A stretch of DNA of 64,000 nt, taken from assembly GCA_000165425.1 (NCBI GenBank), contig CT868067.1, positions 62,001 through 126,000 of the forward strand. Direction: 5' to 3'. Below, piece by piece: positions 15,482-63,610 of the stretch. Source of the stretch: Paramecium tetraurelia. Lineage: Eukaryota. Position numbers and translations under genes: made by a program. The stretch's first letter is position 1, and each line of letters starts with the position of its first letter. The notes beneath the pieces are model-generated. The model was not told the DNA's origin, did not search any database, and saw nothing but the letters and a program-made list of their open reading frames with translations.

Positions 15482-16925
15482 TCACAAGGCTTTTGCTTGT
15501 GTCTCAAGTCACAAGTTTCTCACTTGAGGGATTTCCTCTTGAGGCTTGGACTTGGATTTGGAGTTTTATTTGGTTTCTATGAACCTATAGGACTTAAACG
15601 ATAATTTGAGTTTCTCGTTGACGAGGCAGTTCTCATTGGCTTTAAAAATTGGCTATGCGAGGAAGCCAAGGTTTCTCTTGTTGAAGGGAGAAACAATTAC
15701 GCCTACTTAATCTAAGGCTCTTTGATTCGAATTCTGTATTTCTCAGTGACTATTTTTTCCTATTTGAACCATTAGTGATTCATGGCTTCTTTCACTGTGG
15801 GTCTGAGTTCCTTAACTTCAAATAAGGATTTCAAAAAGAGTAACCCTTACTCACTTACTTTCAACTTACTTACATCCACCTAACCCTAATAATTCTTGGT
15901 TATGGTTTCATTGTAGTCACCTGCAAATGGTTCCTCTCCACAAATTATAATATACATTATTACGCCCACACTAAAGACATCCACTTTAAAATCATAGAAT
16001 TCATCCCTCAAAATTTCAGGGGCTACAAACCCAGGTGTTCCACATCTTTAAAATAAGTATTTCCCATCCTTATTAAAATAGTCTGCCAAACCAAAATCAG
16101 CTACGCAAAATTAAGACAGACTTTATTTTCTTAGGATGATATTTTTTGGTTTGAGATCTCTATGCATAATGCCAAATTTATGAAATGACAAAATAGCCTT
16201 AAATAGTCTATATATGAAACTAGCTAACTATTTTTCACTGAGAAATGAGTTCGGCTATTTTAAGTAGTCGTACAGATCTCCTCCTTCCAGCAATTCCATC
16301 ACAACATATATGGTGTCTTCGTTCTCAAAAACTTCATAGAGGTGAACTACATTTTCATGTTGGACTTGACGCAAGATGGATATTTCTTTTAAAAGAGCTA
16401 TCTTGTCTAATCGATTTGTTAATTTGTGTTTGGAATATTATTTAACAGCAAATTTTTCATCTCCCAATTGGTATCTACAGCTGTAAACCTGAATAAAATT
16501 TAGTAGTACTTCTGCTTGATTTCCCTTGCCTATCTTTTCCAATATTTTGTACGTATTTGAGAACCCTTGTTGGATGCACCATCTTTTCATATAATTGAAC
16601 CAGATTTCTGTTTCTCCATATAGAATAAGAGTCTCTCCTTTAGTTAGAGAGATCCCATCTCCAAGCATTTTGTCTCGCACCACCTCTATCAACGAGTTTT
16701 CATAATTTATCCATTTGATGGTACCCTAAATATATTTAAGAATACTTTTTTTGTGTAACAACCTAAAATATTTTGTATCAAAATGTATTTTTTTATTTTA
16801 CAAGTGTTGGTACCCGATTTAATAAATTCTCCATCCAGAGCTCCATTTTTCGAGAAGACTGGCATTGGCAGATAACTCCACACGAGTTTTGTTTTCGTGC
16901 TTTGAAATATTGATTCTTTAAACAT
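15482..16925 (-). CDS. CaMK-like Ser/Thr kinase with N-terminal PH-like region
   Basis: IGKGNQAEV, FAVK, HRDLKPKN, ADFG, RCGTPGFVAPE. Confidence 0.9.
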
Positions 16926-17254
16926 ATAATATTTTTTATTTACTGAATATTTATTGCTTAAAATATGTTGATTCAAATAATTTATAGTTCCTATTTAAAT
17001 ATTATAATTTAGGTTATGAATTAAGTGGCGAAGTTTTTTTTATAAATGATGATCTAAGATGGGTTACTTACTTTGAGATTTAAAATTATGGAAAAGGAGA
17101 CGTTGCATTTCAGACTCTAAGTCAACACGATAAGAATTGAATAGAAACGATTGATAAAGATTTGAATAATAAATTGTTTAATTAATAATGGTTTATTGCT
17201 CTCAATTTTATAATTGAGAAATCGTATGATATTACTATGTATAATAATATTAAA

Positions 17255-20200: not shown

Positions 20201-23200
20201 ATAACCCCAAAGTTTGCTAGATGATTTAAACCGATTCTCAATATTGCCAATATGACTCAACAACTTTCCATTGCAAGGATTTCTCAGACTTTGTCTAAGA
20301 TTGCAAACCTGGATACAATTATTTAACTTGCAGTTTGAATTCCTTGTGTCAATGGGATTCAAGCACAGAAAGTTGTTAACCCAGTAGCTCTGGAGCAGAT
20401 TTATGCAAGGATCAAACGAATGAGACTAATTGTCTAGCCGTCACAAATGATTTGTGTTCTTGGACTACTTCAGGAAAGTGTAAGAAGATTGTCATCACTA
20501 GCTATACTTAATGCAGTTAGGTAGGTACAGCCTAAGGCAAGTTCGTGAAGAAGATATGCCAGTAAATCTTTTTCGGAACCGAAGCTTGCCAATATGATAG
20601 TGCCAGCAAGGCTTGTGTGACAGTAACAACTACAAACAACCAATGCAGTTCAATAGGTCTGAACAGGAAAGCTTGTCTTAGCAATACAATCGGATATAAA
20701 TGCAGATTTGAATCAGATTCAACCAAAGATGATTATGGATGCTAAGAAATCAGCGATTTTTCAAGTCAAGGCTGTTCTGACAGTTTAGATAGCGAGGCTT
20801 GTGCATCCGTTACTATTTCTTAATGTGCATACGACTTGACTAGAGATATTTGTGAGGATTACTCACAATTCTATTTGGCCTACTATTACACCTGTGCTTA
20901 ATTCAGCACTGGCTATGTAGTTTCAATAAACTTATGCAAGTATCTTACTGATGTTGCATGCATCTATGATGCCGCAACTTTCACATGTAAAACAACTAAT
21001 GCACTATTGAATCTATGCTCTACAAATACAACCATTAATTCGGTGTATTGCTTAACCTAAATTAAGGATTAAACATGCGCCTTTGATCCATATTATGGCT
21101 ACTTTTGTTATCAAACTGATACGTCCTATTGGTCTTGTAGTGATTGTTTATCCTTTAAGTAATGTGTCACTAGCAGATATTAAATATGCAAATGGTAGGA
21201 TAACTTATGTCAGGAAATTACTGTTGATGATGTACCGTGTACTGATTTGACAAACATCAATTCAAAAGCCTGCATGAGTGTTACTGGGGATGCAAAATGC
21301 TAGTTCAAGTATGATTCAGTAGCATAAACAACATCTTGCGTAACTCCTTTGGATGACACTTAGCTTTGTCCAGGATTGAATGAAGCAGCCTGTGTTGCCA
21401 ACACAATCTAATCCTGTTTCTTTTATTAGAAATAATGTTATAGCAGTTTTTCTGATCCTTACTTAGCTAGTTGCACAGAGGAATTTTCTTTTAATTATCG
21501 AGGTTGTGTGAGAATTATGAATTCAGATCAAAAATGCAAATGGGACACCACTCTTAAAAAATGTATTTCAATATCGATTTCACCTACCGATACTTGCACT
21601 ACTTATGCAGATTCTAATTATTCAGCAACTATTTGTGCCTCAATTTAGAGTGGAAATTGTATTTGGGATAACGGATGCAAAGTAGACGTGGCTCTTAGTT
21701 GTGATACTAACGGAGCAAATAAAGGAGCGTGCATAAATGCAACAACAGGGAGTTGCGTATTTTCAGAAGGAGTTTGCATAGATGTGACTATTCCATCAGC
21801 TTTAGTGAAAAACTCATGTACAGATCCTTCAAATTAGTCAGGATGTCTGAACATGAATTTAGGATAAACCTGTAAATGGACGGGAACCACATGTCAAGAG
21901 ATCAGCGTAACTGGTGGTTGCACCTCGTATACTAATGTGAATCCAGGAGTATGCTAAAAAGTCACCGATGTAGCATGTAAATGGACATCTTCCAATTGTA
22001 CTGTGGCTATAATGAAAGGAGTATGCAGTTAAGCAGGATTGAACAAAATAGCATGTTTGAAACTCACCTCAGAAGTTTGTTATTTCAAAAGCAAAACCAA
22101 TACTTGCACTCAGATTACTTAGTAGACTTTGAACGAATTGGAATGCACTGACAATCTCAATGAATAGGCATGTCTAGCTCATTAAAAGAAATGTTGTAAA
22201 TGGAATTTAGATACGGGAACATGCTAGGATTCAACAGCAGGTTCAAGTTGTGCTTCACTGATGAATAACTCACCTTATTGTTGTTAGATTTTGACTGGAT
22301 AAGCTTGTAAGATGGGACCATTATATTGTTAAGAATTAGCATCCTTATAATCCTAGTGTTCGGATGCATACAACAAAGAGGCTTGTTAGTGGATTAGTTC
22401 ACCGTGTAGGTGGGATGATACGTTAATGAATTGCATATAGGTCAACAAGAATTATGGATGCAAACCTGATTTGAATGTAACAGGATGTGTGAACCAATCA
22501 GTTCATTGTAAATATTTAGATAAAACATGCATGGCAGCCAGCACTTCGGATACTTGTGCAGATCTATATAATTCCTCATTATCTTCAACAAAATGTTTGT
22601 AAATAACAAATAGCAGGTGTTTGGTCATTAATAATGGGTGCGCAGTTCCTCCTTACAATATAAAGTGCACTGAAAACATGAATAAACTTGCATGTTTGGA
22701 TAACGTTAATTACTGCGTTTGGAATGAAACCACTAATAGTTGCAATGGAAAGAGAGTACTCACTGCCTCAACAACTTGCGCAACTGGTGTTGTCAGTAGA
22801 GGGTTATGTGCATTCTCGAAAGTGCAATGCAAATCTGAGTATGATTATTCGTGCAGCACTTTTACTAATATTGATGATTCTAATATCACTTGTGATGAAA
22901 GGAATGCTGTTCTTCCATCTAACTCTTCCTAATGTTTGGCTCTGGATAATGTCATTTGTCAATATGACTCAACCTAACAGAGATGCACATCCAAGATATT
23001 TGGTTCTGTTTGCACTTCCATTGTTACCAAAAAAGGCTGTATCTACATAGAGAATAATTGTTATTGGTCCTCCAACTTGTGTTTGCAATACAGTTCAGAC
23101 AAGTACTTTAACACATGCGAATAAATATACACAAAGTATCAGTGTTTAATCAATATCAATACAGCCTGCTAATGGTTTGAAGAATATTCCCAATGTAGAA

Positions 23201-25816
23201 CCTACAAGGGATTTGCAGTCACTTGTGAAGAACACACTGAAACAGAAATCTCCCCAGGAATATGCTTTTATTTCTCATCTGATTATTGTGGTCATGATGG
23301 GAAAAAATGTAAAAAGGATGTAGCTTAATCGGTTTGTGCTAATTCAAAGAGTCCTCTAGGATGTCAAGCGAATACAGCTGGAAATTGTTTTTGGAGAATC
23401 AATACAGGCAAATGCGAAGCCTTAACCGATTCTAAACTTGCTTAAGTCATGACTTGTGTCGAATTGAAGTATTCCAAAAAAGAATTTTGCTTAGCCCCCA
23501 TTATAGAAGGATAGACATGTCATTGGAAAGACGACCTGTGTTAAAGTGCAAATATCGAATTCATCTCTTGCACCGATGATCTATCCTTGGATGGATGCAG
23601 AGCAGTTGCAATGTGGGGGGATTGTGTTTTCAAAGACAAATGTTAAGATGCAGACATTAATAATATTAAATGTACCGATTATATCAATATAAATTCCTGT
23701 TTACACCTGACATAAGATGGCCAATACTGTAAATGGTTGGGATAAAGATGCTATTCCTTAGAAAGTGAAGATGGCTTTGAATTATCCAGTCACATACTGA
23801 TCAACGCCAATGTCTGTCGAAAAGCCTACACTAAATCAGGTGCTCCAGATGCTACTCTTAAGAATATTGGTGTTCGCTATGATCCATTAAACTATGTATG
23901 TCAATTATCAGATCCAGAAAAAGATTTATGCAGCACTCCAGGTTTGAATTACTATTCATGTTTGTCCACCTAAGCTGATGCTTGTGATTGGACTGGTAGC
24001 AAGTGCAAACTCTTCGATTTCGGTGTAACATTCACCCAATGCGATCAATATATATCTGTATCTCCAAAGGTTTGTGCTTCAATTAATACATCAAACTTAA
24101 AATGCCAACATAATTCAACCACTTTAAATTGCGAAAACTTCTCTGAAACCACTGAAATCTTTGTTAAAAATAAGGATGATGTATATGTAAACACTAAAAA
24201 GGGGATGAATCGATTGGCTTGCATTAGTGTTCTTAAATAGCCTACCATTTGGGCCAGTGGAAGATGCGAATACAATCTTGTTAAAGTAGGCTTAATAACC
24301 TGCAACGAATTGATAGATGTCAATCCCAAGTCTTGTGCATAAATTGACAAGGACAATGTCACTTGCAAATATTTCAAAGAAGGAACTTGTACTGCATATT
24401 TTGACCCATAATTTGATAAGTGCACTACACCTGGCTTAAATAAAGTAGGTTGTGTTTCTATTGAAACTGAGTAGTGTCGCTTTTCTGAGGGATCTTGCTC
24501 AAAATACGAAATTTCAAATATCATCAAATGCAATGAGATGAAAAATGTGAATGCCCTAGTCTGCAAAAATATCATAAATCAACGTTGCAAATTCAGTTTT
24601 GTCAATAGAGGATGTGTCTAATCATATTCAAATGATAAATGTTCATACAGTGGACTCAATCAATTCGGATGTAATAGAACCACCTAATGTCAATGGATTG
24701 ATGATCGATGCTTCTGTAAAGGAGAGGTTTCATCACTCCAATTAATAGATTGCTCCAAATTCACTTCTGAACTTTGTCCAAACTACAAATAGTGCATTTT
24801 TGACAAACTTACCAGTCTCTGTCGAAACAGGAGATGCAGTGATCTTGCTGTTGCCTCTTGTTCGGGGACTATAGCCAAATCAATTTGTTATGTTAATCTC
24901 TTTAAATGCAGTTCTGCCTCTAAGTGTTCTGAACTATTCAATGTAGATTGTAGTCTTTATACTATCGCTGGTAAAAAATGTGCTGACGATCTATAGAATG
25001 AAAATCATTGCATTGATTAAGGATGTCAGCATTTCAATGAAGACTAATGCACTGGTAACTGCCAATGGTCATACGCTTAATGTGTGCTCAAAGAGTGCAC
25101 ATACATGAATAAAGACAAGTGCACTGGTATCATGAATAATAAGCAATGTTATTGGGATGGTACTTATTGTTAGGCCCTTAGTTCCTGTAAAGAATATATT
25201 ACATATTCCAAATTAACTGATACAACCCTGTAACAATAGTTGTGTACTTCTTCAATGTTTCTTAATAAGAGATGCAGATGGGAACTCGTTGAACCTTTTG
25301 GAACTGAATTTTAATGCACATCCAAATTGTGTTCTGATTAAGGTACCAGTTCATCAACTTGCCATGGATTTGAGGCTCAATCAGAGGTATGTGTATTATT
25401 ACCGGACTTTACTTGTGTGGCTTGCTCAGAAATTACAGACTCTTGTACCTGTTTAAATATGAATGGTTACTGTTACTACAGTGAATCCAAGGGATGCATC
25501 TCAAATCTGTGTAGCGATCTGGATGAAGCTTCTTGTGGTATTATCATTGTTAAACATATTTATAGCATCAAATTCATAGAGATGCACATTTATTAACAAA
25601 TAATGTAAACCATCCTGTGGTAAATTGAGAAGTGTTGAGTGTACTGTAAGGTAACAGTCGAGTGAGTGTCATTGGAACAGTAATGTTCTGAGATGTCTTG
25701 ATGGTGCACCTCCGAGTGTCAATCTAAACACCATGGAGGAAGTGATAGTCATAGAGAGCTCGATTTCTAAGATTAACTAAGTGATCATCATGCTAATAAT
25801 GATATATATTAATTGA
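17255..25816 (+). CDS. Giant (~2800 aa) cysteine-rich surface protein with signal peptide and hydrophobic C-terminus
   Basis: Signal peptide MKKFTIILIIVCLQLSSC; dozens of repeats with CxW and GLNxxxC motifs; introns near 17750, 18156 and 25538; C-terminus VIIMLIMIYIN then TGA 25814-25816. Confidence 0.9.
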
Positions 25817-31592: not shown

Positions 31593-34500
31593 TCAAACTA
31601 GTTAGAAGCAAATAAACATCAAAAGAGTTAACTATTGAAAAAGACCTATTCCAAACGAACTTTGTGTAGTTTAATTAGGAGTGTCATTGCCTTTGGTAGA
31701 ATTTTAAGGTTTTTCAATTTTCGTACATGAAACGCATTAGGAAGTGCTTGGGTTCCAGTAATAATTATATTGTGTTAAAGTAAAACAAGTATTTTAATTG
31801 TAAGAACTTAAGTCTGCACTTTCAATACATTTATTCGTTTTGGTGCTCCAAGCACATAATGTGATCTATTTATTGATAGTATTGATCAGAGGTTTACATC
31901 CAATGTCACTATTGCTATTTGGATTTAATAATGAGCAATCCATTTAATTACATTGAGAATTTTAAACTGTTCCATTAATTAAAGCTTCTGGTATAAATGC
32001 ACAACCAAAGTTCTTACAATTTTTTTCAATTGAATTTGCCTAACTACAAGAATCCATTTGTAAGCAATTTGAAGTACTATTTACCTACTCTTACCATATA
32101 CAAGTCGATTTATCTTTAGAAACATTGTCATTGCATTAAAATTAGCTCTTATAATTATTACAGCTGTCAAAATTAATACAAGCTTAATTAGCAGAATCAT
32201 ATGCACAACCTACATTTTAACACATTTACTATTCTGTTATACCAGTATAATCAGAGCAAACCTTAACCCTGCATTTACTTAGCTAAGCATCATAAAAACA
32301 AGCAATGTTATCAAACGCTATTACACAGCCTGGAGATTCGTATTTACTACATTCCAATAAATCAATACAATTAATTCCATTGGTTGTGCATTTAGTCGAT
32401 TACTTTTAGCAGTCTTGATGAGTTGTTAGTAAGGCATTTTAACACTTCCAAGGAGAACATGTGGAATTATCCCAGAAACATCTTCCATCAGTACCCCCAG
32501 CTTCACAAGAATCCTAATCTTTAATCATAGTGCATTGCACCTTTTCTACACAAGTCTCTTTGTTAGTAGTACATTTAATATTGTATGCTTAACATTCTAC
32601 ATGTGTTTTAAGTTGTAAATCTCCACATGCACCAAAGGTTTGACATACTTATTTAATGGCATTATAGCCACATATCTTATCATCTACTCCAACTGATTAA
32701 TTACAATTTTCTTAAGTAAATTATGGACAAGGTAATTTATGTTTACAAGTCTCACTCCCATCTGAATAGCATTTATCACTAATACTGGAACAAATAAAAT
32801 TATCTTAGGCAATTTCTGCAGCATTTTTAGGGATAGCATTCCCAATATCATCTCTTTTGATTTCTAATAAGAAATCTTCACACTTATTAAATTTGATACA
32901 CTTTTTCTAATTGTTATCCCAGATACAAGCATTTCCAGTTGAATCTGTAGTGCATGTGGTTCTAGATCTAAGTGATTAACATTCATAAAATGTTGAATCT
33001 TTACAGCCACCAAGATTATCATATTGACAACTATCTCCGAAAATACTACAAACATCTTAGCTTCCTTGAGTTTCTATCATATTGCAAGTGGCTGTAACAC
33101 AAATTTCATTAACCCACAAGCAGAATCTTCCTGGTGCAGTAGTCAAAGTTTATTCACAAGCCATTCTATTATCTATTGATTTGCATGATTAAATAGAAGA
33201 TTAACATTTCTTCATTATGCCATTGAATAAACAATTTTTTGTGTAGGCTTTGCATGCTTATTCATTAGCTGTACTAGATTCTTAACAAGTTTTAGCTATG
33301 CACTTATCAGCTTGAGTCTTGCTTCTTCCAGTACATTTACCATCTAGTCCAATTAATTTTTCACATTCTTAAAAAGTACCAGTGTAGGAATCACAATTTT
33401 ATAATTTATCTGTGCAACCTTATCCATTAGTTAAACATGTAGATAAGTATGCTTAACAGTCTTCATCTGTTTTTGTAGTAGTTGGAGCAGTATTACAAGT
33501 TTATTCTATGCACTTCTCAGCATTGGTTGGATCTTAGATACAAGTCTTTTTATTAATTGAAATAATAGTTTCACATTTCGATGTATATTAATCACATTGT
33601 TTTAATGAGGTAACACAATTCTATCCATCAAATTAACAACTAGGATTTGTTGAAGTACAAGTAGCGAGGCTTGGTTATTAAATAATTTCACAAGGAGTTG
33701 GTTGACATTAATCCGATGCTTCGTTTTCAAAGCATTTCCCATCTAATCCTTTATATTTGAAGCATCCATCAGACTTCTTATAAGTGTTGCACGGCTATAA
33801 TGTAGTTGTACATTTCACTCCATTTGATATACACAATTTTGGAGAGTTGGTGTCTCTTGATGAATACTTATTGCATTATTCATCTGAGTCAAAATTATGA
33901 CTTGAACAAATGTCTAATGCACAAACTTTAGATCCTTCGGTTTCTGGTTTACACTAGCCTTCTTAACTTATGTATTGATCACAAGTTGAGTTCTCCAGAA
34001 TTTTCAATTATTTGCAAGTACCAACCAGTGTTGAAACACATTAAACCCCATTGGATATGCATTTTAAGTTTGGACTTGCTTTCTTGCATTCATCATCGGT
34101 TGTTCCCTTGAAATCTTCACAATTTGGATCCTTACACTATTGAGTATTTGAATTAATTTAACAATCTCCATTAATTCCTTTATAACTCAAGCATTCATCA
34201 ATTGTATAACCCAAACAGGAGCTCAAGGAGTCAACACATTTTTGTTTATTTGATAAGCATGTGGATTTATACTTTTTACATGCCTCATCTGATGACGCAT
34301 CTGGAGCCAATTTACAAGTTCTGAGTTGACACTTATTAGTATTATTATTGACTTCACATTATCCATCCTTTGATAAGATGTTGAGACAATCCTCGACGTT
34401 GTAAGAATCACAATTCGCAAGTTCCTTCACGCATGTCTTTTTATCTGTAATGCACACTTGATTTAGCAGCACTTTGTTACAGTCTTCATTTGTTTTCTTA

Positions 34501-35003
34501 GGATAATTTTTGCATTCCTTCTCCTTGCATTATTTAGTCTAAGTGTCGTACATACACAAGCCTTCTCCATTTAGTTGTTTGACAGATTCACAACCTGACT
34601 ATTTGTCCTCACCTACATATTCACTACAGACCCTTTCGTCTGTGCAATACTAATTAACAAGTGACCAATTGCATAACATCGAGTACTTTTGGCATTCTAC
34701 ATTTGATGTTGCAATGTATGATTAGCAATTACTAAAAACTACACATTTCTTGTCTACAAAGGCACATCCTCTTTGCTTAGCACATCTTCCTCCATCTATT
34801 ATAGAAGAGCAAAGTGTAGAGGAATAAGCAACTAATTTAGCCTAATTACAACTCTTCGATGACAAATCCCATTCGCAGGTACTAAGTTAGTTACAGTCGT
34901 AAGCTGTTAAAATAGCAGAGCATTAGCAAATGTTATTACTTACAGTTAATGATTAGCTCACTCTCAAATACAAAACAATCAGTATCATTAATATTTGCGT
35001 CAT
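31593..35003 (-). CDS. Paramecium surface-antigen-repeat protein (mini-antigen-like), probably GPI-anchored
   Basis: Signal peptide; periodic Cys repeats with C-x-(S/T)-(N/D)-G-x-x-C motifs (CISNGVQCV, CLTNGQGC, CTTNGINC); hydrophobic C-terminus; 3411 nt, apparently intronless. Confidence 0.88.
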
Positions 35004-35415
35004 TTAAGTTTCAGATTATTAAATTCTAATTATAGTGAATACATCATAACTTATATAATTATATTAAGGTAAAAGATATTTCATAATACATTGCGGGTCA
35101 AAATATTTTCTGTCATGTTCTTTTTTATTTTCAATAATTTTCATGATTTCTAATAATCATAATTTCTAGATCTATATTTCTGTTCTTTAGACTTGTTTCA
35201 ACATTAGATTCTATTAAATATCATCAATTTGATCTCATTATTCAACATTAAATCTAAAATAATAAATTCAGTATGCTATGGAGATCTGAGAATTTAAGAA
35301 ACTAGAAACTAATTTCAAATTTGAATAGATGTTTGGACAATTTAAGTATAGCATAATTACTCTACTATGTATTATGAAATCACAAATTAATAAATTAAAA
35401 GATATAGACTAAAAT

Positions 35416-36881
35416 TCAACTACTAATTTCATTATGATTATTAAAATTCAAGGTTCTTTTTTGTCTACTGCCTCGTCTGAACATTAGATGAGATTAAGGA
35501 GGTTCAAAGTAATCATTATTAAGATTAGGAGGTTTTTCAGATGGACTTTTGGAAAATATATTGAAGTCTTTCTTTAGAGAAATCACTTTTATAGTCTTTG
35601 GAGATCTTTGAGATTATTTAGAGTTTATCCTAAATCTACTTGAGTTTTGATTCAAAATTCCTATTAATTGAATGCCTAAATTTCTTTAGGTTTTTTGATT
35701 TTCTTGATCAAATATTGGATGAGCCAATAATTGCTTGCAAGTTTTAGTTTTTAACCCTTAATAAAAAATTGAATTTAAGAAATCGAAACACAAATCTGAC
35801 AAAGGAGGATCTATAAATTATAAATCTTCAGCTCCTCTGAATTTATTCATCATAGCATCATCAATTACTTGATTTACCTAAAACTATTTCCCTGTCAGCA
35901 AATTGTGCATCACTATTCCCAAAGATAGAACATCAAATTTAATATAATATAGAATTTATTTCTCTGGATTCAGTGGTATTGTTTATTCATCTTTCTGATC
36001 TCCTTCATTAATTTAAACAGCCTAGTTAAAATCGATTAAACAAGGATTTGAGAAGTCATTCTTATTTTTAAAAATAATGCTTTAAGTACTAATCTATTTA
36101 TGAAATATGTTGAGATCATGCAAGTACGATACAGCTTGGAATAGAGGTTTCATTATTATCAAAATTTCTTATTCTGAAAGAGCCTATTATTTTTCAGTAA
36201 TGGTAGCAAGTTTTTCACCCTTGAATAATTCCAAAATTAAGTATATATGATTATTGCTCTCATAGACTTCATAGATCTTCAATAGATTTTGGTTATCCAA
36301 GCAGCGGATTATCTTCAATTCTTTTAAGAACTTTTTAGCTTCAAATTTATTTATTAGTAACCTCTTCTTATCAAATACTTTGACTGCATACTCATACTTT
36401 GTCAATTTGTTTCTTGCTCTATAGACCTAATATTTTGTAAAAAGATATACAATTGTTGAATATCCCTCTCCCAGTTTATTTAAAAGTTAATACTTCTATA
36501 TAAAATCGAACTGTATGGTATATTTCTTCATTATTTCAATCCACTAGTCTGATAAGCCAAAAATATCTAAATCCACTCCATTTTTTGATAGTTTGATCCC
36601 AAATAGTCCTGTTTTTGGATGTATGATTTTTTACATACAAACATTCTTTAAATTGATAAATTTCTATTTTAAAAATCAATTTATTATACATCTTCACCAA
36701 ATCTAATGAAATTTGATCCTAATGCCAAATTTTTTATTACTAATCTGTTTTAATAACTAATCTAGAACTCACCTTTGTATAAGGGAACAAAAGGATGAAT
36801 GGAATGGAACGAATATAAAGAAGTATGATCATTGAAAAAGGAATCTGCTGAACTAATTTACAATAGTTATTGTTTTATCAT
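35416..36881 (-). CDS. Pseudokinase of the PH-like/CaMK family
   Basis: LGEGYSTIV and YAVK are present, but the catalytic loop reads FHKQISTQSI and DFG is replaced by DFN. Confidence 0.85.
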
Positions 36882-37216: not shown

Positions 37217-38723
37217 TCACCAAACTTTTTACTTTATCTTAGGCATTAGATTCATCCTGGGTAGTTAATAAAGATTACTTGGTCTTCTTTATGAGTTTTA
37301 TGAGGGTGGATTGGCTCCATTATCAATCCTATTGAATTTAGATATCTTTAGTGGTAATAATATGTTTTTTTTAATTCTGTTTGATAAACTTCTTGAGTCG
37401 CTTTTTCTTTCTTAAATATTAGGCAACGTATTAACCCTCGATCGAATCTCCATTGATTCATCTTCGTTTTCGCTTTACACACTTTATCTTCTAATCTCAT
37501 TTAAAGTTTGATATTTGAGAATAAAATTAGATGGCTCTATTTATTTCTTGAATATATCATTTTTTAACACCTCTAAAGGTGTATTTGTATCACTTAGTTA
37601 CAATTCAAAATCAATTAATAGCAATTGTTAAAGTAAGATTTCTAATTCCTTACTAATTTATTAGAAATTTAGCATGCTTTTAATATCGTCCAATTGACTA
37701 GGTAAATTATATTGATTGTATTGATGGCCAGTAAGCAACCTTATTAAGATAATACCCAATTATTGTAGGTCAGAGGCGTGAGTTTTATCAGTTTTTAAGG
37801 AATTTCTTTGACTCATCATTTTTTTGGTTGAGTTCCTGGCAGCATTAATCGACATCACTTTGGAATAATGCAGTAGGCATAGTGAATCTAAGTCTTATTC
37901 GCTCTTGAAGCCTATGGCCTTGAGGTTGACATCGCCATGTATTAATCCTTTTTTATGCATCTCTTGCAATCCATTTAAGGTTTATTTCACTATGAATATG
38001 ATTTGTTATTAATTAAAGGTGGTTGATTAAAGCTTACTTTCTAGGGTTCCACCTTCAACCAATTCTTCTACTACATAGAGATGGTTCGCACTCTCAAAGG
38101 TTTCTAATAGACGAATTAAATTTTTATGATCGAATTGCCTTTTGATATGAATTTGCCTTTTGACTAGCTCAAGGAAGGCTGGAGAATTTTGCAATTTTAA
38201 TTTATCATAAATCCTAACAGCATTTAACTATCCAGTTAGTTTATTTCTAATTTTGAAAACCTTTGTAGAAATTTAAAGTGATACATACTTGCAATTGGCT
38301 TCCCTCTCCAATTTTTTTGATTATTTTATATTTTTATTACAAATTTGTTTAGATTGTATACTTTCTTAAGACCTCAACCCAATTTTGGATGTCTCCATAT
38401 ACATCCAGTTTTTCATTGTTTTTACTTAATCTAAATCCTGATTGAGAAGTTCTTGGATGGTACACCAACTCTAGAAATAGATTCCTAACATCGAGAAATT
38501 TCTGTTTAATAATTGAGATAATTCTTACATCATCTCCAAATTTCAGATAGTAACCTCCCAAATATATTGTCTTTTATATGAACCTATTCCTATTAACAAC
38601 AGAGAGTTCATCTGATAGTTGGAATTGGATCAGCATCTGAGGTCTTTGAATCCAAAATTCCGGACTGTCTTCTAAGATAGACTATGTTAAATTGATGGGC
38701 TTGTTATTTTGGGATTTAATCAT
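37217..38723 (-). CDS. Pseudokinase of the PH-like/CaMK family
   Basis: LERGSQLQV, NAVR in place of VAIK, HGDVNLKAI catalytic loop, LLHYS in place of DFG, no APE. Confidence 0.82.
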
Positions 38724-40013: not shown

Positions 40014-41857
40014 ATGTTATAGAGAATTTAACCTCAAATTGGAAATAATTAGCCAATACATAACACTCTTGAAGAAATGTCGATAGGACAAGATTATACG
40101 AACTTTGTCGTCCTTGAAAATTCAATTTTTAAGACAGTATTTAAAATAGAATAAACTAAGATTTATGAATGCATCCGAATATAATCAGCACAAAAATACA
40201 TAGTTTATCAATTGAAGTATCAATAATATTAACAAAGCCACTCTGTTTAATCAGTTTCCCCTCAATATATTCAAAAACTCAACTAATACAAGCTCGTAAA
40301 CCTCATTCATCCAGAAAATATCTATTATTAAGAAAACTGCATTTTTATGACATAATAGCAATGTTTAAACACCTTTTAGCTATAGAACTGTAGACAAAAA
40401 TTAAATAAATAATTACAATTGTTCTTAGTAACATAACTTTGCATAAGTTTTAATAATATTTTATACCATATTTTTATAGCATTATAAGAACTCGAGAGAC
40501 GGAGCTTCCCCCCTTATATATTGAGTCCCAATAACATTTACATTATCGAAGGTGTATTGCACCTTAGTTTGATGCATTTCAATTTTCAAGAAACAGGATA
40601 GTAAACCTTTGATTCATTTAAGAAATTCGGTAAATCTTAATTGTGTATTCTAAGTCAATTAATATTTTCACTTAGATGATTACTGTAAGGATAATTTTGA
40701 AAAAACAACTGATTATCTCTTATCAAATATATAGATTGATGATTCAGGATGCAATTCTTTGAACTATATCAAAAAGTTGCTTTAGATTAATTATTTAAAA
40801 CTAGAATAAGCTGGATATAATTCCTTTATATATTCATCATCAAGACCTCCTTTATTTTAAATTTATCCTCACATTAAAGATCAAATCATTATTAAAGTTC
40901 TCAGGATAAATGATGACAATGATGAAGATGTAAATAAATATCGATATTCTTAAAATGAAAGAGAATTAATGTTCAATGAATAACTTAATGACAACATCAA
41001 ATTTGCAACTTTTTGTGCTTATATTCGAATCCAAAAGATTCCCTTCTTTTTTTTCTAGAAGTATCCCTTAACTTTGCAGCAATTATTTGAGGAATCCTCA
41101 AAAACAACTGACCATCCTCTTTAAAAATTGCAATACAATTTTGCTATGCAGCTAGCCTTAGCCTTAAAGGAATTACATAGGTTGCAAATTTTACACAGGG
41201 ATATTAAACCTGAAAATGTATTCATTACAAATCTAGATTATCATAAAGCCAATCTTAAAATAGCAGATTTTGATAGGTCTAGGAAAATAGATTAATAGGA
41301 TTGTTAAGAGTAAGTTTCAGAAGGTGATTATACAGTCTTTTCTAGTACTTATAATTATAATCCTCCTGAAGCTTTTAAAACCTAGTATGGTTATTCAAGT
41401 GACGTATGGCAATTCGGATTGACTTGTAATGTTGTATTCAAAATATTTAGTATTCCAAATGGCAAACAATGGAGTCTATCCACCAGTCAAGGAATAGCTA
41501 GTCTTTTTAGATGACGACTATCGCAAAATAAATCTAGATTTTATCAAGAATGTATTATAAGATAAACAAAATATTAATTAAGCTTATATTAATTTAATCT
41601 CAAGATGCCTAGAATATGAGAGTGATAAAAGGATCACTTTAAATAAATTTATATATGATTTAGGTCAAATTAGAATTGATATGGCTGATGAAGATGATAT
41701 TGTGGAACCTTATTATTATCATACATCAGAATAAAGCACATGCAATTTTGACTCTTCAGTTTGTTGGACAAATTTTTCCTTGAAAAGCCCCAATTGGAGT
41801 TTAAATAAACTAGCATAATCGCTTGGAGATACATCAATATTATTCAAGGATTAATGA
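40014..41857 (+). CDS. Divergent protein kinase with long N-terminal extension
   Basis: IIIKV, LHRDIKPENV, KIADFDRSR, TYNYNPPE, SDVWQFG; TGA 41855-41857. Confidence 0.8.
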
Positions 41858-50122: not shown

Positions 50123-50410
50123 ATGAAAAAGTATCGGTTGAATGTTATGGACATCTATTTAAATTAATATGTTGATATTAGATCACAAGATTAAATGGAG
50201 TGTTAGCAACCTATTAATCATTTGTGTAGTCTTGGGGTAAACTTCATTTAATTCTATTAATTGAAGGCCATTCACATAGAATTAAATATTTATGATATGG
50301 GATTTTATTAAGGTAATCGTATCATAATTGCTAAAATTATGATGGTCATGAACACTATATAGTCACTTTCATTAGAAAATATATAACTTTGTAAATTTGA
50401 AGATCAATGA
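50123..50410 (+). CDS. Small hypothetical protein
   Basis: 288-nt ATG-to-TGA open frame in code 6, convergent on the next gene with a 5-nt gap. Confidence 0.35.
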
Positions 50411-50415
50411 TAAAA

Positions 50416-51866
50416 TCATTTTAGGAATTTTGAGTGCTTGGCAACTCCAAGCTGCTTTGTAACTGGCGAGTGAAATGTAAGACTTCCATCAATAGAAGTC
50501 AGAGAACCATCATTTTTTTATTGTTAACCTAATTATTGTAAAATATGAGTTTTTTGAGGACTCTTCAAGTCTTATCTCTTTGATTAAATGGTAATTGTAT
50601 CCAGAGATGCTCGGCACAAAGGGCAGATCTAATATTTGAATGAAATTGATACCTTATTCTTTCTCATCCAGTTTTACAAGCAATTCACATGAAAAATGTG
50701 TTCACAATAGGTGATTCTAACATTACTGTCAGGCTTAAACAGCTCTAAACAAATTGAACAAAATTATTCATCTTTTTAAGATGATTTCCTGTCTGTTACT
50801 GATAGAAATTGTTAAACAGGCATGAAATATTGAATTTGGTTGACATTATTCTACTATTTGACGCTACTTTTCTTTTTGAGAATGTAAACTACAATAATGA
50901 AAATAATAATAAGGCTTAAGATCGTTACCAACACTATAACAACTATTAGGATTTACGGTTATTCAGTATTGTATTCAGAATATTATACAACATCTGAGGT
51001 GTTGGTTACCACAATAAATTAAGAATAATAACTTATTTTTGTGAATTGTTCCAATATCAATGTTTGTTCCTTGCATAAATTTATTTGGTCTTCCTCAATC
51101 TTCAGAGTTTTCCCTATCTAATGAGGCATAAACAAACGCGATGAGTTCGAGTAACATTAAATTGAATAAGATATATCAGAATTTAACTCAATTGTATAAT
51201 CTACTGACTATAAGGTGATTAAATCCAAATACTGGACTTAAAAGCCATAAAAATAGTTATTATATTCAATATTGGTAGCTGCGATAGAGCAATCATATCC
51301 AACAAATCCTATTGGACATTGACAAAAGCCTTTGACACAAACCCCTTTATTTTTGCAATCCCTAACTTAATAATTGCATTTACTCTGCGCATTCGTCGAT
51401 TTCGAAGGATTCAATGGTCAAAATGTATTCCGAGTCAGTAGTTGAATATATAATTGCATTGCATTTGTTTCCTTCGATCTGGAAAATTTTGTAATATTTG
51501 GATACTAAAGTTGGATATTAGTTATGTGACAAAAAGATGATTTAAGTCTTGTTTTTTAATACGTAAGCATTGTAGTCTAATAAACAACTATTTGATCTAT
51601 CATTAGTTGAATCAAGTAGGTCTTCAAAATTCTCAATATTCTCTAGCTTATCTTAACAAATCGCCAATATTGGCATTTCTGAAGATTATTAAGTGACTGA
51701 TATTTTCAGGTTATTTTATGGAAGTAGATTTTCACAGAAATTATTTAAAGGAGTACTTTATATTCCTTATGTTGTATTTACCAAATTTTAAATCAGAATT
51801 TCAGCTAAGCATTATTATAAGAATATGGAAAATAATGAAATCATAATAATTATTAATGAATTTCAT
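50416..51866 (-). CDS. Signal peptide-EGF-TM-RING-H2 E3 ubiquitin ligase (copy C)
   Basis: EGF DCKNKGVCVKGFCQCPIGFVGYDC; TM ILSLIIIFIIVVYIL; RING CSICLE..RITYCEHIFHVNCLQNW..ICPLCR. Confidence 0.88.
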
Positions 51867-51899
51867 AACAAATCGGTCTTCATTAAAAATAAAGTAAAT

Positions 51900-53374
51900 T
51901 CATAGTGGAACTGCTGGGGAATTGGCTGATTTGTGTTCTCCAAACAATCTTATTTTTTTTTATGAAGAGTAATTGCTAATCTGTTTAGTTGAGGATGCAT
52001 TTTGATAGAGCCCGTCATCATTATTGTCTGTGTTGGTTAATTTATTAAGGGTTTCATAATTTAAGGAAGATCTACAAGTGGGACAAATCTAATTAATTAA
52101 TGAATAATGAATACTTCATTTTTTTCTATCCAAAGATCTAAACAGTCAGAGTGAAAAAAATGAGTGCAATATGAGACACGAATCTTATGATCCTGTTAAT
52201 AGTTTTCTAAACATATGGGGCAACACAGATCATCACTTAGACCAGGAAATTTCCTGATTAATTCTTCGAATGTCTGAATTGGCATAAATTTATTCATTTA
52301 TCTGATGAGTGTTATCTTTTGAGACATGGATGATGAATTTCCAAACAGGTTATTAACTTAAGAGGCCCTTTTCTTACATTTAAAACAAGCGAAAATAATA
52401 ATCAAAAGAAATGACAATCCAATCGAAGTGACAATGTAAATAATAGTATTTCTATTTGAACCATCCGATTAGTCAGATAGAATTCCTACTTGAGAATTAG
52501 AATTGAAGACATAAAGTGTTTAAAAGTTCAATGAAAACTGTTCATTATTTGAATGAATTTGGTCTACACACATTTTAGAGTCTTCTTTCGAGATTTCGAT
52601 AAAAGATTGGTATTCCAATTCACCTCTTAAATAAAATGGATTTTTTCCCAAACATTAAAATATAAAGCCACATCTTTCATTAAAATCAAATCGGAATGAC
52701 TAATAATATAAAAAATACTAATACATTTAATTCTGTGATGTTTAAATAATAAATCGAAACAGGATCCAATTAATCTTAACTAGCTAAATCCATAATTTAT
52801 ATACTGCAGTCATTGCCTATATATCCTGCTACACATTAGCACGAGCCATTTAGGCACATCCCTTAATTTTGGCATGGTCTACAATTCTTAGCTGATAAAT
52901 TACACATAGCATTCATTTTTGTTTTGAATGTCAAAGTTAATCATGAAATCACTTCTCTACTCCAAAACAACAATTATATTGGCTCTTGTGTTTTTTTTCA
53001 ATTAGATTATATTCATGTAACTATTATCTTTTTCTTTAAATTCAACAACTATTGTTTAAGTGGGTTTTCCAAAATCATAGGAATTTAGATCTGCAACACA
53101 TTAATTGCTAATTTGGTTAGAAGTTGATCTCTTACTTTTGAATTGCAAAATAATCAGGAATCCTTGGAAATGAGGGCGATCTTCTACAAATCAAAAAAAG
53201 AGGCAACTTATGAGAATAATAATTATTAAGAGTAATTATCAATCTCTGATCTACTGTCAAATTGATCCTGTCAAAGATGTCTGTTTCAATGTTGATCTAC
53301 CCATTCATTTATTTATATCCTTTGCTAAAAATTGAATCAGCAACTCCTACAGTCAATAAAATATTTAGAAACAT
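51900..53374 (-). CDS. Signal peptide-EGF-TM-RING-H2 E3 ubiquitin ligase (copy B)
   Basis: [78 protein letters not shown]. Confidence 0.88.
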
Positions 53375-53393
53375 ATAATAAAATCATAATTCG

Positions 53394-55068
53394 TCAGTTT
53401 TCGCTAAACTAACAAAGACCTGGAGTGTTAATTTGAATGACATTGGCAGACCCAGGAGATTGAGTTTCTAAAATGCTTTAATTGTCATTTACATTGCAAT
53501 TATCGTATTCTTTATTCTCTTTGCTAAAACTCTTATAATTTTAAAGGATCAATTTGAATAGCATCGTCAACCACCACTCCTAACCTAATAATCTATTCAT
53601 CCTATATCTGTTGCATGTATCTTTCCTAAGTCAAATTGCTTCTACAAAAAGGACAAGTCTATCATAATATTCTTAAGTACTTAAGTTCTTTTTCGCCATT
53701 CATCCAAGCAATACTGATGAAATAAATGCAAACAATATGTCAATTTAACCAAGTCCTGTTTCTTGAATTGCAATAGACAAATCTAACATTCTGAAGATTC
53801 CTGAAGTCCTGGAAATTCCTAAATCACTTAATCATAAATTTCAGTTGCAATATAATCCTATCTCAGGGAATGTCTAAACTTTTTAAGTTTGAGTTAATTT
53901 GCCTATTCATTGCTCGGCTATAGAATCAATATTCTTTTCCCTTTTCTCTATTTCTGGATCATACAGATGATCAACAAAATCAAAATTATCAAACTCCCCA
54001 AAACACATAGAATAATGTAAACGATCTCTAAAGTATCATCACTTTCTTCGGAATCCCCTGAGGTCAGAGTTAGTTTTATTTCAGTATTCATAATTTGTTC
54101 ATTAACAAACAAAATTATCAAGTATTTTTATAATGGAGTTTCTAGAGCTTCCTCTATTTTATTGGCATTTTCAAAGCAATTCTGTAGATCCTTCTCACTA
54201 ATCATTAGATTTCCATTCGAGATATTGGTTTGATTGAATGAGTTACTCTGATAAAAGGGGATGTACTGTTTTTGGTATGAACATCCATAGTAGAGCTTTA
54301 TCTCTAATTGTGAATCAATAGTTATGATAAGATTTGATGAGGAATCTGGAAGAGGAACAATGATAAGATTTTCAGTCTGTCTCTCCATTTAGAACTAGAT
54401 AATAATTTAAATTTACTGAAGATTTACTTCTGAAATTTATAATATTGCTAGTCATCTAACATGTACTGTCTAGTACTCCTAATTGGCATTGGCATAATTT
54501 TACTGCATTCTCACTGCAATATCCTCGGTTATTACATGAACTAATTTATAATGAAATCAAACTTATAGCATTCTCCTTTTTCAGAGGAACTGATTGTCAA
54601 TGTATACGTCGTTTCTTACGTCGAGTAGACATACAATCTCATTTTACGGTGATTTAATTAATAAACACTATATTGATTGTATACCCATTCATTTTGGTCG
54701 TCAATGTTATTAGTAATGACTAGTTGTTATGTATTTTGATAATACAATAAAGCATTATTATCAAACACACATTATTTTCTAATTACAAATAAATCTTACT
54801 TGTTTGATTCTATATGCTATTGGATTGAACTTATGGATTATAGAATAGATTTGACAACTTACTCATCATTATTAAAGCAATAAGCCAAAAGGGGATACGA
54901 AACTTTAATTTTATTTTCTAAAATTATAGTTAAAGTTGTTTTTCCAGTAGATGTTTGACCAAATTAATCCAAATCTAAATCAATGTATTAGAGGCCCTGA
55001 GTTCTATATTGCTTTGTAACAGAAAATCCATTTATTTAAATAAATAGCAATAGTAGTCCGAATATCAT
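53394..55068 (-). CDS. Signal peptide-EGF-TM-RING-H2 E3 ubiquitin ligase (copy A)
   Basis: Signal peptide MIFGLLLLFI; EGF-like CNNRGYCSENAVKLCQCQLGVLDSTC; TM region near 54030-53970; RING CQICLL..KLTYCLHLFHQYCLDEW..TCPFCR. Confidence 0.85.
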
Positions 55069-59094: not shown

Positions 59095-60579
59095 ATGGAT
59101 GTGAAAATAAAGGATTCTTTTTTTGATGATCCGGAAACTACGACCTTTTGGGTTAACAATGGTCTACCCAATTAAGACCAAATATTATAAATGCAGGATT
59201 CAATGTACATCTAAAAGGAAAATGAGTTCTGCAAACGCACTCTAGGCATTTAGAATCACTACTTACTTTACTTTAAAAAATAAGTATATTGTAACCAATA
59301 ACCAATAGACGGCTCAAAAATGGGTTAACTTGGACAATGCTACTATTGAATATGTCAAACATTAAAGTGTAGGATTGGGGATTAGAATTTCAAAACATAA
59401 ATAATGTTTTGAGTTCTTCGGAGATGTCGAACCTTGGTATAATTATTTGAGATAATATTGTGTACAAAGAAATTTTTCCCAAAGTTACACTTTATTAAAG
59501 AAAATTGGATAAGGAAATTTTGCTGATGTATTTAATGACCCTATTTTTAGGTATATAAGGCAACCAATAAGATGGATGGAGCTGAATACGCTATCAAGTG
59601 CTTCAGGAAGAACAAATTAAAGGAGAACGTCGATAGATTATCAATGATCAAAGAAATATCAATCATGAAGAAAATCCAGCATGAATCAGTCATTAAATTA
59701 TATGAAGTATATGAAGGAGATGATTGTTTGTACTTGGTTTTGGAATACTTGAGAGGAGGAGAACTTCACCAATTTATGAAGAAGTCTCCTCCCTTTTCTG
59801 AAGAAAAATGTTCAAAGTTGATTTTTCGGATTCTAAAGGCCTTATATTCTATACATCAAAAAGGAATATTGCATCGGGATCTTAAGCCAGAAAATATTAT
59901 GTTGAGAAACAAAGATGATCTTGATAATATCTGTATCGGAGATTTTGGATTAGCCGATTATTATTCTCCAAGTGGCCAATATCTTTTTACTAGATGTGGA
60001 ACTCCAGGCTATGTTGCTCCAGAATTGCTACAAGATAAGCTCTATGATTTCAAAATTGACATTTATAGTGTTGGAATACTTATGTACATTTTAATCGCAG
60101 GTAAGTCGCCATTCGATGGCAAAGACTATGATGATGTTGTTATGAGAAACTACTATGCGAAGGTGAAATTTGAAGATTGTAAATTAACTGAGGTCGGTAT
60201 GAACTTCTTAAAAGGTTTAATGAATAAAAATCCAATTCAAAGATTTAGTGCAGAAGAAGCGTTAAATCATCCATGGTTTGCAACAGAAAATTCCAATAAA
60301 GCTTGTTAATTTAAAATTCGAAAACAAAACTACGTATTGAAAAAACTGGGTCATTGTGAATTATAAATCAAATAGTTTTCAGCTATTTCTACTTAGTTCA
60401 GTCCTAAAAGTTCGTTATCAAGCCTTAGTCCTTACTGTATGACTAAATATAACTTGGATGAAAGTCCACAAACTCCTAATTCACCAAGCGCATAATTCGC
60501 CATTTCAACTCCCAGAACTCCTGGTATGTGTAAATTAAGGCCAGTTCGACGCTCTTAATTTAACTTAAAATAAATTTGA
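59095..60579 (+). CDS. CaMK-like Ser/Thr kinase with N-terminal PH-like region
   Basis: IGQGNFADV, YAIK, HRDLKPEN, DFG, RCGTPGYVAPE; TGA 60577-60579. Confidence 0.93.
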
Positions 60580-61788: not shown

Positions 61789-63430
61789 ATGCTTTCCTAA
61801 TCAAATTTGACTCTAACTACTTAAATCAGATTAGCCACTGTTATTCAAGCAATCGCATAAAACGAATAATTGAGTGAGAAAAGAAGATAAATACTAGCCT
61901 AGCTTGACATGTTCACTGTAGAAGTTGGTAATTATTTTAACAAAAACCATAGCGTTTTTACGGTTGGATCAAAGCAGAGTGAATCAATTGGCACATACAG
62001 ATATAATTGAATTTTTATAAGACAATAAAATATCCCATTCCCAATTTGAGGCAGCCTACCTCTTTAAGAGATTAGATTGGGACAGAGATGGAAGAATAAA
62101 ATTGGGAGAGTAAATGATCTATTTAATGTTATAGTTTTCTCTAATACATTTTACCAAAAAGAAATAACACCTTAAGAGACATCGCCAAAGCCAGAACCCC
62201 TTATTAAATTGAACCTGGAATGTTATTGCCTAACGAAGTTGAATTGGCACTTGCTGACTTATTTACCTAAGAAATCAATAATTACAGGACAATAAGCCAT
62301 GCAAGATAGGCTCTAGTCAATTCTTTAGACTACTCAACCTTGGAGGCCTTCAAAACTCTTGATTTGTTTAACCAAGGTTTTCTGACAAAGGAAACTTTAT
62401 CCCTATTCATGTAAAAGTAAGGAGCCCCATTGTTGAATGAAGAAGTAGACTCATTCTTTGATGCTGTTGATTTGGATCAAGATGGAAGAATATCCTATAG
62501 TGAATTGGTAGAGGCAGTTCACTTGATGGAGCCCTTACCCTATAGATCAAGTGTTGTTAGGGACACAGACTATATTAGAGCAGTAGAAAATAATAGATCA
62601 CTAGAAAGACTAGCTCTGCCTAGTTATCCTTATTATTTCTACCCATACTATCCCTATTATTATCCTTATTACTATCCATCTTTGAGATTGGAAAATGTTA
62701 GACAAAGAGAAAATTCTCTCGAAAGATTAAGAAGATCAAGATTATAATAGATCGAGAGTGAAAATAGAATTATTCATTTGGAGAACGAAACAAGAAGAAG
62801 TGCTGAAAGATAAAGAAGCGCTGAAAGATTAAGATAGATTTAAGAAGAAAGTTTGATTAGATAAAAGCAAATTGAGGAGTAAAATAGAATCAGAGAGCTA
62901 GATAGGATAAGAGATGATGACTTGAGAAGAAGCAGAGAAAGAATAAGATTGATAGAAAACGAAGCAAGACTTAAGTAAATTGAGGCCGAAAGTAGGGCAA
63001 GAGATATCGAAAGAGAGAATAGATTATTAGTATTAGAAAGAGAGTAGAGAATAAGATAAGCAGAGTTGGAAAGAGAATTAATAGAAAGCAAAGTTAAATA
63101 TCAAAATTTGGAGAGATAAAGTTCTTTAGAGAGATTGAGATAACTTGAAGATATAAGAAGAGCAGAATTAGATAAATTAAGAACAAGCTCAGCATTGGCT
63201 TACTCTCCTTATTATTCCACATACACTTCAAACGTACCATATTATGAGAAAGTATTATAAAAATACCCATATTCTTTAATTGATTCGATAAATGCTTTTA
63301 AGTATTAGAATTTAATCTATTTATTAGTTCTATAAGAAGATATTCACCAATTAATAATAAGTCATTGGTCTAATCAACAATTTACGAAAGCCCAAGTAAA
63401 ATAAAGAAGTAGGAATTCAAGTAAAAATGA
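61789..63430 (+). CDS. Multi-EF-hand protein with Tyr/Pro-rich segment and charged E/R tail
   Basis: LDWDRDGRIKLGE, LDLFNQGFLTKE, VDLDQDGRISYSE; YPYYFYPYYPYYYPYYYP; long E/R-rich helix. Confidence 0.85.
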
Positions 63431-63610
63431 TTAATACAATTTTCATTAATAATCTAAATACATATATTTGTTCTATTGCCCTTATTGTCACTCTAAAATG
63501 TGAGATGTCATAAACAACAGCTAAAATCAAAAAGAAATTTCAACGTTGTATACATTTAAATAAAATATCTCTAAATCAGCCTAAAAGAATAAAATATAAA
63601 AATTTAATAA

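Follow-up and report, generated by a model that had tools for sequence, protein, structure and literature searches.

We analysed a 64-kb stretch of Paramecium tetraurelia DNA (contig CT868067.1, positions 62,001 to 126,000; hereafter the window, in whose numbering all positions are given), in which positions 50416-55068 of the minus strand carry three head-to-tail genes, here called A, B and C, for putative single-pass membrane proteins with a large ectodomain and a RING-H2 domain. The window is AT-rich (GC content 0.24-0.37), and the ciliate code (genetic code 6) was the sole code to give open frames; gene models were rebuilt under it by removal of GTA...TAG introns of 21-28 nucleotides (nt) each. 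Gene A (GSPATT00037807001; 55068..53394) has five introns and encodes a predicted type-I membrane RING-H2 protein of 520 residues. Its paralogues are gene B (53374..51900; four introns, 456 residues), deposited in two parts as GSPATT00037806001 and GSPATT00037805001, and gene C (GSPATT00037804001, CAK69365.1; 51844..50416; two introns, 460 residues). The three genes, like all of their features listed below, lie on the minus strand. Their tandem arrangement had been proposed in a preliminary description made from the DNA letters alone, and is borne out by the code-6 models together with the deposited proteins and orthologues. That description also gave intergenic spacers of 33 and 19 nt. The 19-nt distance from the stop of A to the ATG of B (53375..53393), as read from the sequence and the gene models, stands, whereas the distance from the stop of B to the ATG of C is really 55 nt (51845..51899): the start of C at 51844 is confirmed by the deposited proteins P0001 and P0002, and the 33-nt figure rests on an ATG at 51867, the frame of which closes after 21 codons. 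A tblastn search with all family proteins revealed no fourth copy of the family in the 64-kb window.

Model C coincides letter for letter with the deposited P. tetraurelia protein P0001 (blastp, 100% identity over 460 residues), which was also 97% identical to a query taken from the C-terminal two thirds of C, the eight differing residues representing the read-through of an in-frame intron. The two other deposited gene models are corrected here, A being truncated and B split in two. The deposited A protein, P0011 (498 residues), differs from model A solely by the 25-nt last intron, located in the C-terminal tail (53468..53492), which is left unspliced in P0011 and is spliced in the 520-residue orthologues P0012 from P. 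pentaurelia and P0047 from P. octaurelia, both of which agree with model A; splicing of this intron moves the stop of A to 53394, placing it 19 nt ahead of the ATG of B. The deposited B consists of P0049 (GSPATT00037806001, 156 residues), which ends inside an unspliced 25-nt intron of the EGF-coding region (52879-52903), and P0044 (GSPATT00037805001, 280 residues), which begins just past the EGF. Its orthologues P0021, P0042 and P0048, in three sibling species, are single proteins of 455-456 residues collinear with model B, in which every exon is open and which is 84% identical to P0021.

Two introns are common to the three genes. One is located directly 5′ of the CPxCR codons (22 nt in A, 26 nt in B, 24 nt in C), as had already been pointed out for all of them, and the other, in phase 2, falls within the EGF after the first Cys. 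Transcription was followed in three oligo-dT RNA-seq read runs labelled as the same species and in one contig set (X3). Record 2 of X3, a 1418-nt RNA contig, spans positions 50370-51833 with both C introns removed, and the EGF- and RING-coding parts of C are therefore carried by one spliced RNA; the preliminary description had asked whether these parts could be separate transcripts, and for C they form a single mRNA. The three runs yielded 39, 32 and 74 reads over the 4.9-kb stretch, a low depth, with reads scattered across all three genes, the upstream exons of B among them. In all reads the first mate is on the plus strand, as expected for transcripts of the minus strand under the usual stranded chemistry. 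No splice joints in A or B reached the reporting threshold in the three low-depth runs and the contig set, and the introns of these two genes accordingly rest on the orthologue models. With only 19 nt between A and B, the 3′ end of the A mRNA and the 5′ end of the B mRNA must extend into coding sequence, unless both genes are transcribed together, alternatives that the read depth is too low to separate. At position 50687, all four RNA data sets have G versus A in the window (plus strand), which would change Val378 to Ala inside the RING of C and is probably a strain difference.

All three proteins share one domain order: a hydrophobic N-terminus, an N domain of about 135 residues, an EGF-like module, a second domain of about 110-135 residues, a transmembrane helix, the RING-H2 and a tail. 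The short hydrophobic N-terminus is a putative signal sequence, recognised by its hydrophobicity and not by a dedicated signal-peptide predictor. The N-terminal ectodomain occupies residues 16-159 in A (54571..55023, with an in-frame intron at 54779-54799), 16-145 in B (52912..53329, with an intron at 53108-53135) and 16-151 in C (51392..51799), where it is predicted to be a beta jelly roll; that of A is homologous to those of B and C, and P0011 matches the N-domain profile with an E-value of 7.7e-39. The second ectodomain region comprises residues 190-326 in A (54026..54458, with an intron at 54395-54416), 173-284 in B (52445..52805, with an intron at 52700-52724) and 179-290 in C (50953..51288), where it contains a conserved Cys pair and, in the structural model, four long strands and one long helix. 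It is followed in each protein by one strongly hydrophobic segment of 21 residues (Kyte-Doolittle 2.7-3.7), then by a K/R-rich stretch, with the RING 48-59 residues further downstream. This transmembrane segment corresponds to residues 327-347 in A (53963..54025; 19-mer peak 3.38, K/R-rich stretch after it), to the hydrophobic residues 285-305 in B (52382..52444) and to residues 291-311 in C (50890..50952), where KKK follows and the model has a helix over residues 288-327.

Between the two ectodomain regions lies the EGF-like module, one per protein, at residues 160-189 in A (54459..54570, intron 54541-54562), 146-172 in B (52806..52911, interrupted by the intron at which P0049 ends) and 152-178 in C (51289..51391, intron 51362-51383, which is removed in the RNA contig). 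Its six cysteines follow the pattern C-x3-C-x5-C-x4(7)-C-x-C-x8-C in A, B and C, each of the six being either invariant or conserved to at least 90% across 18 family members. In Pfam, the EGF exon of B exceeded the cut-offs of both EGF_2 (PF07974; 23.6 versus 22.1) and EGF (PF00008; 22.0 versus 21.5), while A and C stayed below that of EGF_2 (14.5 and 15.7 bits, respectively). Every piece was scanned without the first Cys, and it is because this residue is encoded on the preceding exon that the A and C pieces fall short. The layout described earlier, with a signal peptide, an ectodomain with one central EGF and a single transmembrane helix, is thus upheld by the hydrophobic segments and the six-Cys pattern, the Pfam cut-off for EGF being reached in B only. 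Pfam gave no PA match at E ≤ 1 on seven of nine ectodomain-bearing exon pieces scanned, and apart from sub-threshold noise no PA, CUB or other ectodomain family appeared at that level, in keeping with the earlier statement that the PA domain is missing from the ectodomain.

On the other side of the membrane, as judged from the topology signals, the RING-H2 covers residues 406-446 in A (53644..53788, intron 53659-53680 ahead of CPFCR), 359-399 in B (52074..52222, intron 52089-52114 ahead of CPTCR) and 355-395 in C (50614..50760, in-frame intron 50629-50652 ahead of CPLCR). The respective zf-RING_2 (PF13639) scores of 31.5, 33.7 and 45.7 bits all exceed the curated Pfam cut-off of 27.3 bits. After splicing, each protein displays C-x2-C-x14-C-x-H-x2-H-x2-C-x10-C-x2-C, with the eight ligands of a C3H2C3 RING, and the Y-C-x-H-x-F-H core first noticed in the preliminary description is indeed found in all three. 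The eight ligands are invariant in 11 family members. So are the Ile following the first Cys, Trp in CLxxW, Pro in CPxC and the Arg that comes after the last Cys, positions that we take to be the E2-contact and linchpin sites of active RINGs. Among the matches listed for the family profile are RNF38, RNF165, RNF24, Arkadia, ZNRF3, RLIM, RNF13, RNF126 and AtRMR1 (E from 2e-13 to 5e-10), and the best PDB sequence matches among those listed are RNF38, RNF165 and Arkadia; a B-type protein on its own matches RNF126, RNF4, AMFR, RNF13, RLIM, ZNRF3 and AtRMR1. Some 10-20 residues before the RING there is a YEELL-like stretch, Y-D-Q-V-I in A (about 53800-53850) and F-E-E-L-I in B (about 52230-52280), each followed by FPGL; no such stretch is seen in C. 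One C′-type protein of P. sonneborni, P0020 (444 residues), reads through the intron in its EGF region and has several RING ligands replaced, and is likely to be either a decaying copy or a poor model.

The full-length structure model is mediocre (predicted local distance difference test, pLDDT, 65.2; predicted template-modelling score, pTM, 0.49). Modelled alone from an 18-sequence alignment, the ectodomain is confident (pLDDT 86.4, pTM 0.81) and comprises a mostly beta N domain, predicted to be an all-beta jelly roll, the small hairpins of the EGF, and a second domain made up of four long strands and a helix of 18 residues. One conserved Cys pair lies in the N domain (C63/C87 in the numbering of C) and another in the second domain (C223/C250), the latter two residues being invariant in the family alignment. 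With the whole ectodomain as a query, the top Foldseek matches were the CUB1-EGF-CUB2 segments of MASP-2, C1r and C1s, with E-values from 2.6e-6 upwards, and reelin repeats (E 4.5e-5), the range extending to 5.5e-4, yet TM-scores for these matches were just 0.17-0.31 with a root-mean-square deviation (rmsd) of 10-21 Å; at E 2.6e-6 the CUB1-EGF-CUB2 matches have TM-scores of 0.17-0.20 at about 20 Å, and Pfam gave no CUB match. In VIA-align comparisons the N domain was nearer to the jelly rolls of PPC, SIDT and GOLD than to CUB. Scores of this kind may reflect no more than a shared arrangement. Structure comparison and the ESM Atlas assigned no known fold to the second ectodomain region, for which the best Atlas score, 0.82, lay in the chance range and was not used. 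The same applied to the Atlas search with the ectodomain, which returned EGF/teneurin-type clusters alone (up to 0.90, with at most 162 shared features). Foldseek against viral models retrieved generic capsid jelly rolls alone (TM-score ≤0.33). Among the solved-structure matches listed for the family profile, all begin at the transmembrane helix and none falls in the ectodomain.

A, B and C can be aligned over their full length at 24-27% identity (A-B, E 1e-24; B-C, E 3e-37). With conservation measured by region as protein identity, the paralogues are 39-51% identical in the RING and 33-48% in the EGF, versus 22-24% in the N domain and 14-17% in the second ectodomain region, so that the strong divergence of the ectodomains claimed at the outset (14-24%, against 39-51% in the RING) is confirmed. 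Between orthologues, the same ectodomains are well kept: identity for C is 91-92% with P. octaurelia and 76-78% with P. pentaurelia, for A it is 82% and 68% with P. pentaurelia, and for B 89% and 72%. This pattern indicates ectodomains that are of old age and under constraint rather than hypervariable, and rapid evolution is not in evidence. Four starred clades, A-type, B-type, C-type and D-type, are resolved in a maximum-likelihood tree of 19 rows; they hold 4, 4, 7 and 4 rows, respectively, and the A-type clade includes the single protein from P. bursaria. The tree is midpoint-rooted only, its long branches are flagged, and it omits the degenerate P0020, P0042-P0050 and P0011, the 520-residue model being used instead of the last. 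Judged by these sequence comparisons, the family is made up of four old subfamilies.

Gene order could be followed through accession numbers. For P. octaurelia (CAD8131621/23/25) and P. pentaurelia (CAD8140340/42/44), the GenBank accessions of A, B and C run on from one gene to the next with an increment of two, which suggests that the A-B-C order is kept in these two sibling species. The B′-C′ pairs from a duplicate set about 45-50% identical also have neighbouring accessions, in P. primaurelia, P. pentaurelia and P. sonneborni. The adjacency of A-B-C and of B′-C′ indicates, if indirectly, that the array is older than one or more of the whole-genome duplications. Full-length paralogy, four diverged clades and accession order together agree with the characterisation of the locus, in the preliminary description, as an old diversified tandem array.

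Word-indexed searches returned full-length matches from Paramecium alone (8 of 9, 10 of 17 and 7 of 7 hits), the remainder matching the RING alone. We also ran an exhaustive HMMER search of 1.84 billion representatives at E ≤ 1e-3 with a profile of 136 positions, limited to the N domain since EGF and RING would swamp the search. It produced 16 hits: nine single full-domain matches, in proteins of 444-529 residues, one fragment of 81 residues, and six multi-stretch hits. Six of the full-domain matches were new and came from P. sonneborni, P. pentaurelia (together with cluster members from P. primaurelia) and P. bursaria, and the other three, from P. octaurelia and P. tetraurelia, had already been met in the word searches. 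The multi-stretch hits (P0025-P0029 and P0031, with 3-8 short stretches each) were set aside as repeat-driven, judging by the sequence of P0027 and by the entries of three, two of them unnamed and one a mollusc CARD-domain protein. No protein from Tetrahymena or another non-Paramecium ciliate was recovered among the 1.84 billion representatives with the N-domain profile. Relatives elsewhere could be hidden by fast divergence or missing genomes, and, as far as can be detected from such searches, the family appears restricted to the genus Paramecium (the aurelia species and P. bursaria). Within the reach of these searches the family was detected in Paramecium and not in ciliates at large. No paper describing this architecture, or naming any of the four P. 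tetraurelia gene ids, was found in a literature search that had subscription journals outside its reach, and the earlier remark that the architecture lacks a functional description in ciliates still holds within that range.

Taken together, A, B and C are probably Paramecium-restricted receptor-like type-I transmembrane RING-H2 E3 ubiquitin ligases acting in the manner of the PA-TM-RING and RNF43/ZNRF3 proteins. By analogy with these proteins we infer E3 activity, a binding role for the ectodomain, the kind of substrate and the compartment. The N-terminal two thirds of each protein, with jelly roll, EGF, sheet-plus-helix domain and conserved disulfides, would face the outside or an endomembrane lumen and would most likely serve as a recognition module, the single helix acting as the membrane anchor. 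The cytosolic RING-H2 would recruit a ubiquitin-loaded E2, and ubiquitin would be attached to the cytosolic portions of membrane proteins held by the ectodomain, or of the ligase itself, which would direct them to endosomal/lysosomal degradation. The four diverged subfamilies may recognise different partners. A bolder extension, which we regard as quite unlikely, is that Paramecium evolved ligand-gated surface ligases of its own, maintained in a tandem array across the whole-genome duplications. Each of the four anciently diverged ectodomains would sense a different extracellular cue, be it food, mates, symbionts or secreted factors, and would respond with ubiquitin-dependent removal of specific channels or receptors from the membrane of the cell or its cilia; if true, this would amount to the R-spondin/ZNRF3 logic in a protist, achieved with unrelated parts. 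As Paramecium is a classical organism for work on membrane excitability, exocytosis and the switching of surface antigens, and RNA interference by feeding is routine in it, these genes are accessible candidate regulators of membrane-protein turnover.

Elsewhere in the window there are two very long uninterrupted cysteine-rich open reading frames (ORFs), located in its GC-richest part. The one at 31596-35156 (minus strand, 1187 residues) contains Paramecium surface-antigen domains (E 1.8e-42). The other, at 17959-25635 (plus strand, 2559 residues), has no Pfam match at E ≤ 1e-5 and is similar in its periodic-Cys appearance. Five ORFs carry protein-kinase domains (Pkinase E from 7e-66 to 2.5e-20), at 15523-17109, 35419-36675 and 37220-38542 on the minus strand and at 40573-41511 and 59539-60576 on the plus strand, and an EF-hand protein is encoded at 62118-63500 (plus strand).

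Several other explanations of the three proteins were weighed against ligases of the receptor type. They could be cargo-sorting receptors of the secretory or lysosomal pathway, as proposed for plant RMR proteins, with a lumenal module that binds soluble cargo, such as trichocyst or lysosomal proteins, and a RING that mainly regulates the trafficking of the receptor itself. We consider this unlikely: there is no PA domain, the match of the N domain to GOLD is no better than to many unrelated jelly rolls, and nothing ties the locus to secretory cargo, its neighbours being kinases and genes of the surface-antigen type. A role as recognition or adhesion receptors in mating, prey or symbiont contact, with the RING as a signalling output or a means of self-removal and not for the turnover of other surface proteins, would sit well with the four old, diverged ectodomain types and with a layout recalling CUB1-EGF-CUB2 and reelin repeats (Foldseek E from 2.6e-6 to 5e-4); it is nevertheless distinctly improbable, as the low TM-scores and high rmsd of those matches show that domain order alone is alike, and as the conservation between orthologues is free of the fast evolution common in recognition genes. 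That the RING is structural or inactive, so that the proteins are not ligases, is very improbable. Decay does happen, as P0020 has lost RING ligands, but the ligands and the presumed E2-contact and linchpin positions are otherwise preserved throughout the 11 members compared, and between paralogues no other part is as well conserved as the RING. Finally, it is scarcely credible that the EGF- and RING-bearing parts belong to separate genes, as the split deposited records of B (156 and 280 residues) would have it and as the lack of a read-level splice joint for B in our data would allow, given that the 156-residue model ends in an intron (25 nt, GTA...TAG) whose position in the EGF is that of the intron spliced in C RNA, that three sibling species have uninterrupted B proteins, that the exons of B are all open and well matched in P0021, and that C is proven to be one mRNA.

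Comparison of the favoured receptor-like ligases with known systems places them closest in layout to single-pass RING-H2 proteins of animals and plants. They do not belong to the CTL class (RNF38, RNF44, RNF111 and RNF165), which is defined by the 21-residue YEELL motif plus RING-H2 and is described as lacking a transmembrane helix: the Paramecium proteins have such a helix, and their YEELL-like stretch is shorter and is absent from C. The four gene ids are also absent from the published list of ten P. tetraurelia CTLs. CUB1-EGF-CUB2 proteins (MASP-2, C1r and C1s) and reelin repeats resemble the Paramecium ectodomain in the order of beta sandwich, EGF and second domain; however, global superposition is poor and the second Paramecium domain has a long helix, leaving a likeness of layout alone. 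In the MEGF8-MGRN1 system, a single-pass membrane protein with EGF modules is reported to be linked with a RING ligase for the ubiquitination of a surface receptor (bioRxiv 10.1101/2020.05.25.113944). There the two functions reside in two proteins and the ectodomain is much larger, whereas Paramecium joins them in one chain of about 460-520 residues, and no homology between the two systems was detected.

The ectodomain of RNF43/ZNRF3 is PA-like and binds R-spondin, while that of the Paramecium family is unrelated to it. ZNRF3 does match the family profile from the transmembrane helix through the RING (profile positions 294-403, E 2.4e-12), and RNF43 and ZNRF3 are described as single-pass surface RING-H2 ligases that remove membrane receptors (PMC3937510). 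The PA-TM-RING family (RNF13, RNF167, GRAIL/RNF128, RNF130 and plant RMR, among others) is like A, B and C in having a signal sequence, an outer domain, one transmembrane segment and a cytosolic RING-H2, and the RINGs of RNF13 and AtRMR1 are among both the sequence and the structure matches of the Paramecium family. This family is defined by three domains, PA, transmembrane and RING-H2, and the PA domain of GRAIL recruits substrates (PMC4021871). The Paramecium proteins have the last two of these elements, and their ectodomain is instead a predicted jelly roll with EGF and a sheet/helix domain and without PA, so that they are not members of the PA-TM-RING family, though alike in layout. Single-pass ligases that join outside recognition to a cytosolic RING are a main means of tuning the surface proteins of animals and plants, and have so far been chiefly of the PA type; in the Paramecium family, a ciliate would have arrived independently at the same logic, with a jelly roll-EGF ectodomain that has no detectable relatives outside Paramecium.

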